Origin: Candidatus Nealsonbacteria bacterium
Lineage (GTDB): Bacteria > Patescibacteriota > Minisyncoccia > Minisyncoccales > JANBVM01
Reading direction: 5' to 3'
Assembly: GCA_026016225.1 (NCBI GenBank)
Contig: CP061210.1
Location: forward strand, 194,000 to 257,999
Length of the DNA: 64,000 nt
In this document: piece by piece, positions 3,306 to 55,088 of the stretch
How positions within the stretch are numbered: position 1 is the first letter of the stretch
Layout: every line of letters begins with the position of its first letter
The notes under the pieces: generated by a model
The model's database searches: none
What the model was told of the DNA's origin: nothing
What the model saw: the letters and a program-made list of their open reading frames with translations, nothing else
Translations under genes and position numbers: made by a program

Positions 3306-4871
3306 CTATTTTAGGGATTTTACCACATAGCTATCTCTTAGCTTATATCCAAACTTGCGGTAATATTCACGGGTTCCGACTGCTGAAATTACAGCTATTT
3401 TATTTAACCCAAATTCTTTTTTAGCTATTTCTTCAGCTTTTTTAATTAATTTTTTTCCTAAACCTCTATGTTGAGGAGCCAATTTTCTTTCTGAAATTGG
3501 CACAAGCTGCCCATAAGTATGGATTTCTCTGATAATAGCAGCGTCCTGTAAAACAGGGAGAAAATGCTTCTTTTGGGTTATTCTTAACCTTAATAAACTG
3601 TAGAGTCTTTCTCTTTTTTTATTTTCAAAAGTTAAAAATGTCTCTTTCCCTTCAGAAGCTTCATAATCTTTTCTATATAAATATAATTTTTCCTCTAAAT
3701 TATATTTGTCTTTAATTTCCCTACAGCGAATACATTTGCATTTCCAACCCTCCTTTTTTATCTCTTTTGCAACAACCTGCCTAAGATTTGATATTTTAGC
3801 AGGCCCTGTAATGATTCTTGGTGAAGGAATGTCTCTTATTATTCTTTCTATTCTGACATAATAAGGGATTTTCTTTTTAGCTTGTTTTATAATATCTATT
3901 AAGGTTTTTTCAGAATAAGGTTTGTATTTTCCTTTTAGATACCATTTATAGAGAGGAGCTTCCTTTAAAAGTGCACAAGGATATATTTTTAAAGAATCTG
4001 GTTTAAAATCAGGGTTTTTGAAAAGTTCCTCGAACATTCTTTTATCTTTTTGTGGGTTTGAACCCGGTAGATTAAGCATCATTTGATACGAAATTTTAAA
4101 CCCCGCATCCTTTAAGAGTTTGGTTGCTTTTATAATGGCTTTTACCTTATGTCCTCTCTGGTTTAAATTCAAAACATCATCATAAATACTCTGGATTCCC
4201 ATTTCCACCTTTGTAATTCCTAATCTTCTCATTCTTTTTATTTCTTTTTCATCAATAAAGTCAGGTCTTGTTTCAATGGAAAAACCTATAATTCTATGTT
4301 TTGTTGTTTCGTTTAATTTTTGAGCTTTTTTTAAATTTTTACTTAGTTTCTTATTACAGCCATCAAAACATCTTTTTACAAACCATGTTTGATATTGTTT
4401 AGGATAATAAGACCAGGTTCCTCCAATAATCCTTAAATCTATTTTGTCGGTGGGATGCCCCTGTATTTTTAACATTTCTACTCTTTTTTTTACCTGTAAA
4501 TAAGGATTATAATTTAAATTTTTTGCTCTTTCTACTGCAGGTTCTCCCGACAAATAACTTTTAGGGATACCCTTTTCTTCCGGACAATAAAGACATCTGC
4601 CAGGGCAAGGATAAGGCTTTGTTAGTACTGAAACGTTGATAATTCCAGAAAGAGAACGGACAGGTCTGGTTTTGAGTAAATTTTCAAGGTTATTACTTTT
4701 TTTTATTCTTTTATCTTTTAATAATTCATGATAAGCTTTTAATAACCAGATATTAGTTGGAAAAGGGATTTTATATTTTTTAGAGATATTTCTTTTAAAA
4801 GAAGTTAAATCAGCCCGGGTCCTAATCCGATTCTTTATTATATCTTTAATAATTAATTTTTGGATTTTCAT
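3306..4871 (-). CDS. elp3: Elp3-family radical SAM / GNAT acetyltransferase (tRNA U34 carboxymethylation enzyme homolog)
   Basis: 521 aa. N-terminal radical-SAM cysteine triad CPGRCLYCP. C-terminal GNAT block QHRGLGKKLIKKAEEIA...VISAVGTREYYRKFGY, typical of Elp3 (COG1243). Confidence 0.8.
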   Translation of the reverse strand: MKIQKLIIKDIIKNRIRTRADLTSFKRNISKKYKIPFPTNIWLLKAYHELLKDKRIKKSNNLENLLKTRPVRSLSGIINVSVLTKPYPCPGRCLYCPEEKGIPKSYLSGEPAVERAKNLNYNPYLQVKKRVEMLKIQGHPTDKIDLRIIGGTWSYYPKQYQTWFVKRCFDGCNKKLSKNLKKAQKLNETTKHRIIGFSIETRPDFIDEKEIKRMRRLGITKVEMGIQSIYDDVLNLNQRGHKVKAIIKATKLLKDAGFKISYQMMLNLPGSNPQKDKRMFEELFKNPDFKPDSLKIYPCALLKEAPLYKWYLKGKYKPYSEKTLIDIIKQAKKKIPYYVRIERIIRDIPSPRIITGPAKISNLRQVVAKEIKKEGWKCKCIRCREIKDKYNLEEKLYLYRKDYEASEGKETFLTFENKKRERLYSLLRLRITQKKHFLPVLQDAAIIREIHTYGQLVPISERKLAPQHRGLGKKLIKKAEEIAKKEFGLNKIAVISAVGTREYYRKFGYKLRDSYVVKSLK

Positions 4872-5635: not shown

Positions 5636-5708
5636 GTCCCCATAGCTCAACAGGATAGAGTATAGGCTTCCGGAGCCCAAGATATAGGTTCAAATCCTAT
5701 TGGGGACA
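5636..5708 (+). tRNA. tRNA-Arg (anticodon CCG)
   Basis: Hand-folded cloverleaf. Acceptor GTCCCCA/TGGGGAC, D arm GCTC..GAGT, anticodon loop TTCCGGA, T arm ATAGG-TTCAAAT-CCTAT, discriminator A. No encoded CCA. Confidence 0.85.
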
Positions 5709-5744
5709 CAAATAAATATATTTTGAGCCATTTTTTAAACAGAC

Positions 5745-6996: not shown

Positions 6997-8289
6997 ATGA
7001 AGTTCATTGCCGATTTCCATTTACATTCAAAATATTCAAGGGCTACTTCCCCAAAGATGGATTTGGAAAATCTTGAGGAATGGGCAAAGATAAAAGGAAT
7101 TAAAGTTTTGGGAACAGGAGATTTCACCCACCCTTTTTGGTTTAAAAACTTAAAAGAGAAATTAGAACCTGCAGAAAGCGGGCTTTTTAAGATTAAGAAC
7201 CACGCTTCGCGGAACCTTGATTCTCGCTCCGCTCGAATTAAAAACAGTAATACCGGGATCCGTTTTATTTTAAGCGCTGAAATTAGTTGTATTTATTCCA
7301 AAGGAGGGAAGGTCCGTAAAATTCATATTGTAGTTTTAGCTCCCTCTTTTGATATTGTTGAAAAAATTAATACCCGTTTGGAAGGAATTGGGAATTTATC
7401 TGCTGACGGAAGACCAATATTAGGATTAGATGCAAAAGAATTGTTAAAAATTGTTTTAAACATCTCAACAGATTGTTTGTTTGTTCCCGCCCATGTAATG
7501 ACTCCCTGGTTTTCTATTTTCGGTTCAAAATCTGGGTTTGATTCAATTGAGGAATGTTTTGAAGATTATTCTAAATATATTTTTGTTTTAGAGACTGGGC
7601 TATCGGCTAACCCACCAATGCTCTGGCGCATACCAGATGCTCAAAAAGCAATTTTAATATCAAATTCAGATGCTCACTCACCAGCTAATATTGGTAGAGA
7701 GGCAAATGTTTTTAATACGGAGATTAGTTATCCTGCTATTGTTGAAGCTATAAAATCAAGAGATTCCGAAAAGTTTCTTTATACCATTGAGTTTTTTCCT
7801 CAGGAAGGAAAGTATCATTACGACGGTCATAGAATGTGCGGTATCAGATTAGCTCCCGAGGAATCGAAAAAATATAACAATATTTGTCCTAACTGCGGCA
7901 GACCCTTAACAATCGGAGTTTTAAATAGGATAGAACAATTATCAGTTGAGCCGAAAGGTTTTAAACTAAAAGGAGCTATTCCTTTTAAAAGCTTAGTTCC
8001 TTTGAGAGAAATAATTGCCGAAGTCTTGGGAATGGGTGTTACTACCAAAGGTGTTGAAAAAGAGTATAAGTCTTTAATTGAGAATTTTGGTAATGAGCTT
8101 GAAATTTTGCTTAATACTTCTCATGATGAGTTAGAGAAAGTTACCTTGCCTGAGACTGCAGAAGGAATAATTAGGGTTAGAGAAGGAAAAGTTTTTGTAG
8201 AACCCGGTTATGATGGGGTTTATGGAAAAGTAAGAATTTTTTCTAAAGGAGAACAAGAGTCTTTATCTAAACAAGGAGTCCTTTTTTAA
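6997..8289 (+). CDS. endoQ: PHP-domain endonuclease Q (EndoQ / TIGR00375)-like protein
   Basis: 430 aa. N-terminal PHP motif DFHLHSKYSRATS, GKYHYDGHRMCG, and zinc finger CPNCGRPLTIGVLNRI. Size and layout match the EndoQ family. Confidence 0.55.
   Translation: MKFIADFHLHSKYSRATSPKMDLENLEEWAKIKGIKVLGTGDFTHPFWFKNLKEKLEPAESGLFKIKNHASRNLDSRSARIKNSNTGIRFILSAEISCIYSKGGKVRKIHIVVLAPSFDIVEKINTRLEGIGNLSADGRPILGLDAKELLKIVLNISTDCLFVPAHVMTPWFSIFGSKSGFDSIEECFEDYSKYIFVLETGLSANPPMLWRIPDAQKAILISNSDAHSPANIGREANVFNTEISYPAIVEAIKSRDSEKFLYTIEFFPQEGKYHYDGHRMCGIRLAPEESKKYNNICPNCGRPLTIGVLNRIEQLSVEPKGFKLKGAIPFKSLVPLREIIAEVLGMGVTTKGVEKEYKSLIENFGNELEILLNTSHDELEKVTLPETAEGIIRVREGKVFVEPGYDGVYGKVRIFSKGEQESLSKQGVLF
7191..7244. 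repeat. GC-rich repeat element inserted in frame in the EndoQ-like gene
   Basis: ATTAAGAACCACGCTTCGCGGAACCTTGATTCTCGCTCCGCTCGAATTAAAAAC. It shares ATTAAGAACCA, GAACCTTGATTC and CTCGCTCCGCTCG with the reverse complement of the 14473-14558 tandem units. Flanked by ATTAAGAAC / ATTAAAAAC. Confidence 0.7.
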
Positions 8290-13401: not shown

Positions 13402-14448
13402 TTATTTTGCTGGTAGCCAAACAATCAAATTTTCCTTTGTTTCAAACTTCCCATTAATAAATTTTTCAATTACCCAGATATTAGTTTTACAGTGACTTGT
13501 GATTTCTGAAACTGTAATCTGGGATTTTTTAGGAGATAAGGCTAAGTAGGCTAAAATTTGGTCACCTAAATGTTTATCCAGACAAGCTTTGCTTTTTTCT
13601 TCTTTTAATAATTCCAAAGCTGCTTCTTTACCAACATCTTCTGCTCTTTTTCCCAATTTCCCAAAATTATCAGTTCCAATAATCGTGTTTTCAAATTCGG
13701 CTATTAGAGAAATCTGACTGCCAGGACATTGGGGTTGATAATATTCTACTTTTTCCTCAATAGGCAATTTTAATTTCCCAAAAATTTCTCTTACCCCGGC
13801 AACTTGACGCTCTGCCACTTTTTTATTCCTTAATAATTCTGAAGCCCCGGAAATTACTGAAATTTTTTGAAGTTGACCTCTTTTAATTAAATGGAGTGGT
13901 TTTAATTTCGAAGGATAAATTTTCACCTCAACTTTTGCTCCACCTTCTGGATAGTAGCCTCTTTTTAAAATATTAATTTCTACTTTAACTCCCATTCTTT
14001 CTAATAATTTTAAAAAAACATATTGAAAATAATCAATAGTTGGTGAGAAAAAGGTATCGGTAGCACCACCATTGAAAGTAATTTTTATATATTTGGGAGT
14101 TTGCCCTGGGACTGTCGAATGGGCAAAAATAGAAGGAGGAATTAATGTTTGTAAAAGTAAAGTAATACTTCCTGCTGTTGGAATGTTAATTGAGATATGT
14201 TCTTGATAATTTGAGCCGGGATAGAATTTTATTTCAGTTGACCCTAAATAGTTGCCTTCCAATTTTCCATTACAAAAGTGGGCTAAAGCTTGAAGTCCTA
14301 AAAGATGCTGGTATCTCAAACCGGGCTTTGGTCTTTTTTTTCGAATATTAAAAACACGGCAATTTCTTTTAGTAATTGCTGCTAAAGCAGTTGCCACTCT
14401 CAATATAGCTCCACCGCCTTCATATTTTGAACCATCAAGTTCTAACAT
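13402..14448 (-). CDS. rtcA: RNA 3'-terminal phosphate cyclase
   Basis: 348 aa. MLELDGSKYEGGGAILRVATALAAIT..., RPKPGLRYQHL, and LLQTLIPP...GGATD are characteristic RtcA blocks. Confidence 0.8.
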   Translation of the reverse strand: MLELDGSKYEGGGAILRVATALAAITKRNCRVFNIRKKRPKPGLRYQHLLGLQALAHFCNGKLEGNYLGSTEIKFYPGSNYQEHISINIPTAGSITLLLQTLIPPSIFAHSTVPGQTPKYIKITFNGGATDTFFSPTIDYFQYVFLKLLERMGVKVEINILKRGYYPEGGAKVEVKIYPSKLKPLHLIKRGQLQKISVISGASELLRNKKVAERQVAGVREIFGKLKLPIEEKVEYYQPQCPGSQISLIAEFENTIIGTDNFGKLGKRAEDVGKEAALELLKEEKSKACLDKHLGDQILAYLALSPKKSQITVSEITSHCKTNIWVIEKFINGKFETKENLIVWLPAK

Positions 14449-14472
14449 ATTTCTAATATCTAATTTCCGGAG

Positions 14473-14558
14473 GAATCAAGGTTCTGCCGAGCGGAGCGAG
14501 GCATGGTTCTTAATTCGCAGAATCAAGGTTCTGCCGAGCAGAGCGAGGCAGGTTCTTA
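14473..14558. repeat. two tandem copies of a 47-nt GC-rich unit upstream of rtcA
   Basis: Unit GAATCAAGGTTCTGCCGAGC(G/A)GAGCGAGGCA(T)GGTTCTTA(attcgca). Unit 1 is 14473-14519 and unit 2 is 14520-14558. Each has a CTGCC...GGCAG hairpin flanked by GGTTCT direct repeats. Confidence 0.85.
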
Positions 14559-14612
14559 TATACTATTAGTTAATTTTAAATTAATTTTAAAAAAATAAAA
14601 AGAGAATTTTCT

Positions 14613-14653
14613 TAATTGTAGAACAATTACAAGGAGCGAAGCGACTGGTTTCC
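14613..14653. repeat. partial copy (right half) of the 59192-59261 palindromic element
   Basis: Hairpin TAATTGT-aga-ACAATTA followed by GGAGCGAAGCGACTGGTTTCC. This matches 59242-59261 over 20 nt with one extra T. Confidence 0.7.
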
Positions 14654-14686
14654 TAAAAAGATAATATCTATCGTTAATTGAAAACC

Positions 14687-14714
14687 TTGACAAGAATTCT
14701 CCTTTGGCTATAAT
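14687..14714 (+). promoter_or_regulatory. near-consensus sigma70 promoter
   Basis: TTGACA (14687-14692), 16-nt spacer, TATAAT (14709-14714). Confidence 0.6.
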
Positions 14715-14747
14715 GGAAAAATCCAAAATAGAGAACAAAATTAAAGT

Positions 14748-14900
14748 ATGCAGAAAAATACTAATATTATTGTAATTATAGGAATTGATTTTTTGATACT
14801 AACCGAGGACACTAAAAAGTGTTTGGATTATGGTATTTCCCCTGTTAATTCTAAGGGAGTAAATGAGAGGCTTAGTACGCTAAAGAGAAAACAAAAATAA
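14748..14900 (+). CDS. possible 50-aa small protein (alternatively part of a non-coding transcript)
   Basis: ATG 14748 to TAA 14898-14900. Sequence MQKNTNIIVIIGIDFLILTEDTKKCLDYGISPVNSKGVNERLSTLKRKQK. It lies between a strong promoter and a terminator. No obvious SD. Confidence 0.25.
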   Translation: MQKNTNIIVIIGIDFLILTEDTKKCLDYGISPVNSKGVNERLSTLKRKQK

Positions 14901-14930
14901 TAAATAATAAATAATAATATAGACTACTAG

Positions 14931-14957
14931 ACCTCTCTATAAAAGAGGTTATTTTTA
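14931..14957 (+). terminator. rho-independent terminator
   Basis: ACCTCT-ctataaa-AGAGGT followed by TATTTTTA. Confidence 0.6.
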
Positions 14958-14978
14958 TCTAATATTTCGATATTTAAT

Positions 14979-15452
14979 ATGACAGATAAATTCTATTTAA
15001 CTAAAAAAGGTTTAGAAAAAATAAAAAAAGAATATCAGGATTTAAAAAGAATTAAGACAGCTAAAACAAAAGGAGAATCACCTAAGGTTTTACATTCCGA
15101 AGATTTAAACCCGGAATATCTTTCTTTTAGAGAAGACCTCAGTTTTTTGGAAACAAGAATAGCTGAACTTGACTATATTTTAAAAAACGTTGAGTTAATC
15201 AGACTTCCTCAGAAAAGAAAAAGAAATATTGTAAGTTTAGGAGCTACTGTTACTCTGGAAGAGGCAGGTGGTCGAATAAATGAGTTTATGATTGTCGGTA
15301 CCTTAGAAGCTAATCCGAGTGAAGGAAAGATATCTTCAGAATCCCCGATAGGTAAGACTCTTTTGGGGCATAAAATAGGTGATGAAATAGTGACTGTTTC
15401 TCCAATTAAAGTAGTTTATAATATCAAAAAGATTAAATATAAATTATCTTGA
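14979..15452 (+). CDS. greA: transcription elongation factor GreA
   Basis: 157 aa. N-terminal coiled coil (LTKKGLEKIKKEYQDL...) and C-terminal domain (SLGATVTL...ISSESPIGKTLLGHKIGDEI) typical of GreA. Confidence 0.8.
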   Translation: MTDKFYLTKKGLEKIKKEYQDLKRIKTAKTKGESPKVLHSEDLNPEYLSFREDLSFLETRIAELDYILKNVELIRLPQKRKRNIVSLGATVTLEEAGGRINEFMIVGTLEANPSEGKISSESPIGKTLLGHKIGDEIVTVSPIKVVYNIKKIKYKLS

Positions 15453-23584: not shown

Positions 23585-23591
23585 GTTTTTG

Positions 23592-23929
23592 TGGAGGTGG
23601 CGAGCGCGAACTCGCGTCCAAAAATTGTTTCTAAGATAATTCTACAAGCTTATTCCAATTAAAGAATAACAGAAAATTCAAATTGGACAAAACTTTTCTG
23701 TGTTTGGTCTGTTTTTTTTCGATAGTTTCTTTAGACCTTAAAAACTATCTATCTCGATATATGACACCTACCTTATTTATCGAGAATCAGTAAAGCAGAT
23801 GGCATTAAGCGTAAGCTAATGCAGGTTCTTGAAATAAGTTGGCACTTATTTTTCTCTCAAAGTTTACGAGATTTGAGAATACTCGACTTGCCTATCTTAG
23901 TTAAATTTCTGTCGAAACTTTTCACCCCC
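23592..23929 (-). ncRNA. ssrA: tmRNA (SsrA)
   Basis: 5' end GGGGGTGAAAAGTTTCGACAG. 3' end GGACGCGAGTTCGCGCTCGCCACCTCCA. The 7-bp acceptor stem includes G3:U. Tag ORF is GCC AAC TTA TTT CAA GAA CCT GCA TTA GCT TAC GCT TAA, giving ANLFQEPALAYA (plus-strand 23805-23843). CCA is not encoded. Confidence 0.85.
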
Positions 23930-54966: not shown

Positions 54967-55004
54967 GTCGTCTACGCGACTTGAATCTTAGCCGAAATTA
55001 AAAG

Positions 55005-55088
55005 TGCCGAAGGTGGGACTCGAACCCACAAGCCCTTGCGGGCAGTAGATTTTGAATCTACCGCGTATACCAGCTCCGCCACTTCGGC
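55005..55088 (-). tRNA. tRNA-Leu (anticodon CAA), long variable arm
   Basis: Minus strand: GCCGAAG acceptor, anticodon arm GTAGA-TTCAAAA-TCTAC, variable arm GCCC-gcaa-GGGC, T arm GTGGG-TTCGAGT-CCCAC, discriminator A. Confidence 0.9.

Follow-up and report, generated by a model that had tools for sequence, protein, structure and literature searches.

A modular palindromic repeat upstream of rtcA in a Candidatus Nealsonbacteria genome, probably a passenger of a dispersed family

Repeat units in the greA-rtcA spacer

The analyzed stretch, referred to as the window, comprises 64,000 nucleotides of the genome of a Candidatus Nealsonbacteria bacterium (GCA_026016225.1, contig CP061210.1, positions 194,000 to 257,999). 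The gene rtcA, encoding RNA 3′-terminal phosphate cyclase, is located on its minus strand (13402-14448 in the list of open reading frames, ORFs), and the Pfam families of the RtcA homologues are PF01137 and PF05189. On the plus strand, greA and a 50-codon ORF lie behind a TTGACA-16 nt-TATAAT promoter at 14687-14714, so that the spacer is divergent. An earlier note made from the sequence alone had described two tandem, near-identical hairpin units in this spacer, and they were found as described: unit 1 (GAATCAAGGTTCTGCCGAGCGGAGCGAGGCATGGTTCTTA, 14473-14512) and unit 2 (GAATCAAGGTTCTGCCGAGCAGAGCGAGGCAGGTTCTTA, 14520-14558), both on the plus strand, have a period of 47 nt; they differ by an extra T in unit 1 and by a single G/A substitution in the loop. 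The distance between the rtcA start codon (ATG at 14448, minus strand) and the beginning of unit 1 is 25 nt. The plus strand of the block is the strand of the element that is termed forward in the following (GAATCAAGG...), and rtcA is encoded on the opposite strand.

The repeat is not due to chance, because the 17-nt centre of the units was observed twice in the window compared with an expectation of 0.02, and the expectation for the full unit is 0.00. The proposed G + C island in AT-rich DNA was confirmed, with a G + C content of up to about 55% in the block compared with a window mean of 32%; over the whole inserted block of 102 nt it amounts to 51%. Both units also fold into the predicted hairpin between GGTTCT direct repeats, unit 1 with −10.9 kcal/mol (z = −0.97) and unit 2 with −14.7 kcal/mol (z = −2.70). 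The unit pair is not reported by Tandem Repeats Finder at its thresholds.

The block itself is larger than the two units of the earlier note. It extends from 14462 to 14563 on the plus strand (102 nt) and consists, in this order, of a 5′ hairpin (AATTTCC-GGA-GG), unit 1, a linker hairpin (ATTC-GCA), unit 2 and a TATAC tail. The 5′ hairpin (14465-14475, TTCC-GGA-GGAA, read from the sequence) is of the type named HP2 and overlaps the first three bases of unit 1; its arrangement AATTCC-GRA-GGAATCAAGG is also found at three loci of other genomes (L001, L074, and L091). Unit 1 is composed of the core GAATCAAGGTTC, the hairpin HP1 (14485-14503, TGCC-GA-GC-GGA-GC-GA-GGCA), the extra T and GGTTCTTA. 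The linker hairpin TTAATTC-GCA-GAATCAA (14510-14526, plus strand, likewise read from the sequence) contains one A/C mismatch and occupies the position that HP2 hairpins (TTAATTC-GAGCGAAGCGA-GAATCAA) have in the tandem arrays of other genomes. Unit 2 repeats the core, followed by HP1′ (14532-14550, TGCC-GA-GC-AGA-GC-GA-GGCA) and GGTTCTTA. The start codon of rtcA is located 13 nt past the end of the insert.

For the detection of further copies a covariance model (R1) was trained only on copies from other genomes and run over all 64 kb without filters. Exactly three copies were found, namely unit 2 (38.6 bits, E = 7.8e-6), unit 1 (33.3 bits, E = 7.8e-5) and a site inside the gene for EndoQ (33.2 bits, 7194-7223, minus strand); the next best match reached 12.8 bits. 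This third copy comprises one 45-nt period of HP2, core and HP1 (7201-7245, minus strand), is inserted in frame and adds IKNHASRNLDSRSAR to the protein. Here the forward strand of the element is the minus strand of the window. Since R1 was built from the copies of other genomes only and scores both sites in the same range, the link drawn in the earlier note between the EndoQ insert and the units at rtcA is correct. Within the window the units are indeed restricted to these two loci, which does not hold across genomes.

Filled and empty sites

By way of the closest RtcA homologue (98% identity; an exact match to the RtcA protein of the window is not on record), a syntenic contig from another sample was reached (L121, the sister contig). 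It is 97.2-97.9% identical to the window over 14 kb, and the only large indels between the two are two copies of the element. Removal of 14462-14563 in silico yields a 60-nt string that is found exactly in the sister contig, the flanks being otherwise identical. The junction at rtcA is unambiguous and shows no target-site duplication, and its two termini, AATTTCC... on one side and ...TTATATAC on the other, do not form an inverted repeat. A metagenome scan with a 22-nt rtcA flank, seeking other alleles, gave no match.

The second indel concerns EndoQ, which has 430 amino acids in the window but 415 both in the sister contig and in a 74%-identical orthologue (L123), with a clean gap of 15 residues. 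The insert equals exactly one period, terminates in ATTAAAAAC and is flanked by ATTAAGAAC and ATTAAAAAC. In the sister contig the empty target reads GATTAAGAAC before and AGT after the insertion point, which resembles the junction between units of the element (GAATTAAGAACC); the target thus already matched the element's own unit junction. Judged from these flanks, a homology-guided event fits better than a staggered cut.

The earlier note had offered two interpretations for the block at rtcA, a landing site for a small mobile repeat and a 5′ untranslated region (UTR) structure or operator. The first one is supported by the indel relative to the sister contig, by the equivalent indel in EndoQ and by the dispersal of the element in about 60 genomes of the Candidate Phyla Radiation (CPR) described below. 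The second one would make the block an rtcA-specific cis element, either a structured 5′ UTR or an operator for a regulator of the RNA-repair genes. The position of the block, in the divergent spacer and directly before the rtcA start, is compatible with this, and if a promoter was located further upstream, the hairpins would lie in the leader, where the antisense-strand fold of 14449-14590 reaches −28.9 kcal/mol (z = −2.25). However, all four other orthologous greA-rtcA loci (32 kb), one of them from a 97-98% identical genome, contain no copy, the element also flanks unrelated genes and sits in ORFs, and the block has no Rfam match even at E ≤ 10, where just two chance-level matches were obtained for the region 14300-15100. 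The idea is largely refuted by this comparison and is regarded as very improbable.

The empty allele of the sister contig has a −10-like TAAGAT that stops 9 nt short of the rtcA ATG, and the insertion splits this hexamer between TA and AGAT. The sequences suggest that the insertion may have disrupted, weakened or replaced the native rtcA promoter, rather than adding a regulator. On the rtcA strand of the filled allele TTGATT is present, the last one 25 nt before the ATG, without a −10 hexamer at a spacing of 15-18 nt. The best −10 candidate is GATATT with a spacer of 13 nt, and a promoter scan of the minus strand from 14449 to 14900 called none. The rtcA copy lacks a −10 module. Most probably the block is not an rtcA-specific regulator but a passenger in the leader or promoter region of rtcA, with a neutral or slightly disruptive effect, and its hairpins are no evidence of RNA-repair regulation.

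Some further features were noted in the spacer. A candidate for a decayed older copy (TTACAAGG-AGCGAAGCGAC-TGGTTTCCTA, 14627-14655, plus strand) was found by eye and is of low confidence; it shares the GC-GAA-GC tip with the units, is unchanged in the sister contig and was not detected by R1 at E ≤ 10. A 60-codon ORF on the minus strand (14556-14738), which overlaps the greA-side promoter and has no Pfam match, closes on a TAA from the end of the element; it is probably spurious and illustrates how the terminal TAA of the element closes ORFs. The promoter region on the greA side (14680-14714, plus strand) contains a perfect TTGACA, 16 nt and TATAAT, and its −35 context (GAAAACCTTGACAAG) has the 8-mer AACCTTGA in common with the core of the element on the gene strand (AGAACCTTGATTC). 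As a general −35 context this 8-mer could not be confirmed, since it was found only at the greA-side promoter, and the other CCTTGA sites of the window are not followed by a −10 hexamer. The sharing could be a coincidence or the trace of an old promoter-bearing copy. The Rfam search of the whole window at the gathering threshold resulted only in a tmRNA (23589-23929, minus strand, 133.5 bits) and two tRNAs, tRNA-Arg(CCG) at 5636-5709 on the plus strand and tRNA-Leu(CAA) at 55004-55088 on the minus strand, which are ordinary genes and have no relation to the repeat.

A repeat family in CPR genomes

One genome per species was searched with the exact pattern GAATCAAGGTTC-N(5-30)-GGTTCTTA, which returned at least 120 stretches. 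The matches listed, to which the following counts refer, comprise 157 copies at 117 loci; these loci belong to about 60 species-level assemblies of CPR/Patescibacteria, labelled as Nealsonbacteria, Paceibacteria, Parcubacteria, Minisyncoccales, Patescibacteria or generically, and the median G + C content of the 120 listed loci is 35.5%. All follow one conserved, non-palindromic frame of GAATCAAGGTTC, a variable hairpin and GGTTCTTA(ATTC), and the 12-nt core is exactly conserved across the approximately 60 species. An assembly artefact is unlikely, since copies are present in metagenome-assembled genomes (MAGs) from many studies and in the closed genome CP179887.1.

Three non-CPR matches (L043, L045, and L075, from Flavobacterium, Microbacteriaceae and Acidobacteriota) are best taken as chance matches because their centres do not fold, and so are two matches in viral contigs, whose loci have about 50% G + C and no hairpin evident by eye. 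Furthermore, seven loci (L034, L051, L057, L065, L069, L092, and L103) and many loci of 'uncultured Saccharibacteria' carry Gammaproteobacteria or Saccharibacteria labels. Five of six Gammaproteobacteria-labelled loci that were checked have a G + C content of 35-36%, and L069 and L065, which belong to one assembly, have 44-45%. These contigs nevertheless have the same element as the Nealsonbacteria and Paceibacteria MAGs, and their labels look unreliable.

The hairpin is the variable part of the element. Among the 157 copies 110 distinct hairpin centres were counted, nearly all of which share one fold. In a model-guided alignment of 87 distinct sequences, pairing was found in 97.6% of the cells compared with 74.1% after shuffling, two-sided changes in 90 compared with 29.9 cells, and the covariation score was 0.360 compared with 0.072. 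None of 500 shuffles attained the observed value for pairing, double changes or covariation, and pairing collapses when the partner column is shifted. A tandem G.A/A.G step and a GC-RRA-GC tip recur in many stems, as they do in the units of the window. On both sides the stem is flanked by GGTTC(T) in all 157 copies, as direct and not as inverted repeats. The forward strand folds 3-8 kcal/mol better than the reverse strand, mainly due to the invariant AAGG/UUCUU outer pairs; beyond the stem it runs on into GGUUCUUA, in many cases with a T-rich flank after it, whereas AGAACCUUGAUUC follows the stem on the reverse strand.

Units are 27-45 nt long and are joined in three ways: directly, with the short hairpin HP2 in between, or through an AT-rich linker of 27 nt, the latter in a variant named type A. 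HP2 occurs in the forms TTAATTC-GAGCGAAGCGA-GAATCAA and TTCC-GRA-GGAA; in the window the second form is present at 14465-14475 and a minimal version of the first one, TTAATTC-GCA-GAATCAA, at 14510-14526. Most of the clusters (106 of 126) are single units, and arrays do not exceed five units. On the minus strand of one locus, L049, two units of a rare form lack the inner hairpin (GAATCAAGGTTCTTAATT; offsets 3525-3563 in the reverse complement). These hairpin-less units and the GGTTCT direct repeats flanking every hairpin raise the possibility that the hairpin itself was inserted into a pre-existing frame.

The tandem organization might point to a guide-RNA array of the tandem interspaced guide RNA (TIGR) stem-loop or a CRISPR-like kind, or to another cluster of small RNAs. 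Tandem units with periods of 41-68 nt occur in some genomes, with variable palindromes surrounded by short conserved motifs, and the stems of TIGR arrays in CPR are described as 'variable but consistently palindromic' (PMC12045711). In contrast to such arrays, the sequence between the hairpins is alike in the approximately 60 species and the units within an array are identical, so that there are no variable spacers and no variable spacer pairs. There is no adjacent Tas gene, the solitary clusters are dispersed, some copies are located in frame in genes, and no protein recurs in the neighbourhood (906 ORFs). A TIGR or CRISPR-like array is rejected for the lack of variable spacers, and a guide or small-RNA function of any such kind is scarcely credible.

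Differences between related genomes indicate turnover of units and hairpins. In one orthologous pair of arrays (L104:5403-5475 and L116:3175-3335), whose flanks are about 94% identical over a shared stretch of approximately 3.9 kb, 2 and 4 units with a period of 44 nt were found, a difference of exactly 88 nt. At another site, shared with the same junctions by two species (L099:2010-2042 and L109:4018-4054, flanks about 88% identical), the hairpins are wholly different (TCACCAAAGATGA and TGCGAGCGAAGCGAGCA), from which it seems that the hairpin is replaced faster than its surroundings mutate. Conversely, identical hairpin variants occur at unrelated loci in different species; for example, a 39-nt copy identical to unit 2 of the window is located in an ORF of another genome that encodes a ParA/Mrp-like protein (L048).

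The copies show a clear orientation relative to genes when tandem arrays are counted once and only long ORFs are considered. Flanking genes are antisense to the forward strand (GAATCAAGG) in 35 cases compared with 4 for type A copies and in 27 compared with 9 for the other copies (p = 0.004), and copies deep inside ORFs show the same orientation in 9 compared with 0 cases. The window copies at both loci obey this rule. In 26 cases the stop codon of the upstream gene is the terminal TAA of the element, for example between rplE and rpsN inside the spc ribosomal operon and between rpmE and prfA. The copies that are not of type A frequently stop 1-13 nt short of a start codon, as is the case at rtcA. 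All copies in long ORFs use one reading frame, encoding KN or RT followed by x(3-8)-NLDS. Beyond EndoQ, seven ORFs contain the element in frame (..NLDS..), and the six that were scanned all have a Pfam match. The host proteins are TatD, Tgt, a PrmC-like methyltransferase, a ParA/Mrp-like protein, the ribosomal protein L18 and a Xer-type integrase, and the Pfam matches of Tgt and L18 are split at the insert. All-against-all clustering of the 906 ORFs of the 117 loci revealed no recurrent neighbour family apart from housekeeping families.

Type A copies carry on the strand opposite to the forward strand, the gene strand, TTGATT as part of the core, 16 nt, TATAAT and CTTGAATT, often followed by ATG. 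In 88 copies the spacer has 16 nt in 54, 15 nt in 12 and 17 nt in 9 cases, and the −10 hexamers are TATAAT (49), TATATT (13), TATAGT (9), and CATAAT (6). For 25 of 56 solitary type A copies a long ORF starts 3-23 nt past the element. Since the promoter ends about 8 nt before the ATG, a leaderless message would result, and type A can be read from its sequence and position as a portable promoter for leaderless messages. The copies of the window do not contain this module; sigma-70 spacing is found only in type A copies elsewhere. Among the starts of 53 ORFs in the window, Shine-Dalgarno-like motifs were found at 5 and TAnnnT 4-12 nt before the ATG at 22, which suggests that many messages of this organism are leaderless or have short leaders, yet TAnnnT is common by chance in AT-rich DNA. 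Tandem arrays of type A with 3-5 identical units and a period of 60-66 nt were observed at L055:2819-3119, L093:3612-3825, and L095:110-262. In the L055 array one frame is open throughout (LRTSSLRSENLDSLRNKTHNLE repeated), which would mislead gene callers.

These observations also have to be weighed for a domesticated 'punctuation' cassette of the host. Read on the mRNA strand just behind a stop codon, the hairpin would protect the upstream message at its 3′ end or set that end; a −35 box (TTGATT) would come from the core, and together with the type A linker a full promoter for a leaderless downstream message; and the rtcA copy, whose last TTGATT lies 25 nt before the ATG, would supply a −35 box or insulate rtcA from upstream transcription. 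The near-consensus −35 and −10 boxes of type A at 16-nt spacing followed by ATG, the 26 stop codons that coincide with the end of the element, the copies between genes of conserved operons, the exact core in about 60 species and the few Shine-Dalgarno motifs with TAnnnT at 22 of 53 starts (a motif frequent by chance, as stated above) all favor such a role. On the other hand, the rtcA copy has no workable −10 box and the promoter scan of that strand is empty, the sister genome does without the block, and in-frame copies in ORFs as well as arrays of up to five identical promoter units are hard to square with a host function. Moreover, selfish transposable elements of the miniature inverted-repeat type (MITEs) such as Correia also carry promoters (PMC10969869). 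A domesticated cassette of this kind is considered rather improbable.

Relation to known elements and origin

In its behaviour, judged by analogy, the element is closest to the Rickettsia palindromic elements (RPEs), and it also resembles the mosaics of repetitive extragenic palindromic (REP) sequences and promoter-bearing MITEs. RPEs enter housekeeping genes of unrelated function in frame, so that the products gain a conserved peptide (PMC10969869); they have about 100-150 bp and a reported CGTC tag at the end (PMC3733652). Both families consist of palindromic repeats and reside in host-dependent bacteria whose genomes are reduced and AT-rich, a dedicated transposase is known for neither, and the in-frame inserts of TatD, Tgt, L18, EndoQ and others, all with ..NLDS.., correspond to those of the RPEs. 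In a comparison based on the description of RPEs only, the units found here are shorter (27-45 nt) and have no CGTC tag. They differ as well in the non-palindromic frame, the hypervariable hairpin, the tandem mosaics, the promoter variant and the phylum.

REP sequences and bacterial interspersed mosaic elements (BIMEs) are stem-loops that occur alone or in mosaics with linkers, with complementary sub-families and strain-variable abundance (PMC3733652; PMC3116915). The CPR element likewise is a short G + C-rich imperfect palindrome in many copies (110 centres); stem-loops of 20-40 nt, single or in mosaics with defined linkers, occasional copies in genes and sub-families of alternative complementary stem bases are common to both. 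The GTAG/CGTC tag at the foot of the REP stem (PMC3733652) is absent in the 157 listed copies. In contrast to REP dimers, which are mostly inverted (head-to-head or tail-to-tail), the units are arranged head-to-tail, and whereas REPs are mostly located downstream of genes, the element also abuts start codons. No gene for a REP-associated tyrosine transposase (RAYT) was seen beside the copies in the all-against-all clustering of the 906 ORFs of the 117 loci, a search of limited sensitivity.

Correia/NEMIS-type MITEs are small non-autonomous repeats, often located just upstream of genes and equipped with sigma-70-like promoters (PMC10969869), and the reuse of promoters across unrelated genes has been described under the term 'mobile promoters' (PMC3575422). 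Type A with its TTGATT, 16 nt and TATAAT is similar, the window's own copies being without such a module. Unlike Correia elements, which have terminal inverted repeats and a TA duplication, the element has neither: the frame of GAATCAAGGTTC and GGTTCTTA holds direct GGTTC repeats, and a target-site duplication was not found at the rtcA junction, the flanks at EndoQ, the other of the two sites examined, being ambiguous. No transposase-like neighbour recurs within the 8-kb stretches around the copies.

Yeast mitochondrial G + C clusters are short palindromic islands in a very AT-rich genome that occur in spacers and coding regions and differ from strain to strain; a transposase is not known for them. 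They are alike in these traits but belong to a eukaryotic organelle and have unrelated sequences. TIGR arrays share with the element the tandem units in CPR, the variable palindromic stems and the short conserved motifs (PMC12045711) and differ from it in the points given above, in particular the dispersed singletons, some of them in ORFs. Other identities were rejected. Integron attC sites have inverse cores (RYYYAAC and GTTRRRY), while the flanking GGTTC motifs are direct and not inverted. The TTAATTCGA-GC...GCGA linker recalls the helix-31 region of 16S rRNA, which we take to be a coincidence; a fragment of 16S rRNA or of a tRNA T-arm was rejected because the matching halves are on opposite strands of the element. 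The element contains no more than the WATCAA half of an integration host factor (IHF) site (WATCAANNNNTTR).

A literature search, which included the core sequences as text, did not reveal a description of the element; its coverage was incomplete and an earlier description is possible. Within the class of small palindromic repeats, the family seems to represent a variant not described before. It is unusual in its non-palindromic frame around a hypervariable hairpin, the head-to-tail mosaics, the putative portable promoter for leaderless messages, the abutment to stop and start codons and the fixed protein frame.

Taken together, the block at rtcA is probably a copy, with two units, of a modular palindromic repeat that is non-autonomous and dispersed across CPR, and it was gained or lost in the greA-rtcA spacer after the split from the sister lineage. 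Classical cut-and-paste by a DDE transposase probably does not account for the spread of the copies, because terminal inverted repeats are lacking and no duplication is present at the one unambiguous junction. The most likely routes of copying are a strand-specific chemistry acting on single-stranded hairpins, such as RAYT and IS200/IS605 elements use, and template switching where short homologies exist. A switch that enters an array at ATTAAGAAC and leaves it there would produce exactly the insert seen in EndoQ, whose target already read ATTAAGAAC, the element's own unit junction. If copying is guided by homology, recurrent microhomology to TTAAGAAC is expected at empty sites.

The orientation of the copies could result from selection that keeps only those whose forward strand is antisense to transcription. 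As RNA, the forward strand folds into a longer stem with four to five extra pairs including G.U (AAGG.U/UUCUU) and has a U-rich tail, which would make it terminator-like. Selection against the forward orientation in transcripts is the simplest account of the bias, whereas the terminator step is speculative. A scan of 14000-15400 for terminators called neither unit.

Several points weigh against a selfish, mobile repeat. Mobility is inferred from presence and absence, and a precise deletion in the sister lineage would give the identical picture; the comparison comprises just two empty sites, and neither a donor copy nor a transposase or an excision product came to light. That the 12-nt core is exactly conserved in about 60 species is more than would be expected of a decaying selfish element, and may point to a function or to a trans-acting factor that is itself conserved. 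The census loci were picked by the exact core pattern, so that diverged copies and totals per genome are outside the counts, and the neighbourhoods are 8-kb stretches with crude gene calls (ORFs of at least 80-90 amino acids). Wobble pairs do not identify a functional strand, as 23 G.T compared with 15 A.C mismatches in the inner stems are indecisive, and a simple terminator scan of the window lends no support to a terminator on the forward strand.

A bolder version is that the family represents a new kind of mobile DNA, in which a conserved enzyme, encoded by the host or by the element, would recognise the 12-nt frame, install or exchange hypervariable hairpin cassettes and copy whole units without terminal repeats or target duplications. 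An exact core in about 60 species and the replacement of hairpins as at L099 and L109 would be expected in this case, and both were observed. We consider this version unlikely; if it holds, portable leaderless promoters and short peptide inserts would be spread by it through the minimal genomes of episymbionts.

For the dispersed repeat as such, which we favor, the consequences concern the CPR/Patescibacteria as a whole. Their genomes are tiny, gene-dense and usually described as repeat-poor. The element nevertheless enters ribosomal-protein operons, adds peptides to essential enzymes including L18 and Tgt, abuts stop and start codons exactly and, as type A, has what would be a ready-made promoter for leaderless messages. 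It could serve as a strain-level marker, given that otherwise nearly identical genomes vary in whether they have it and in how many units, as a caution in gene calling, since it extends or interrupts ORFs, and as a natural source of promoters for organisms that are not yet genetically manipulable. The element would thus be a significant and overlooked source of genomic and regulatory change in CPR.

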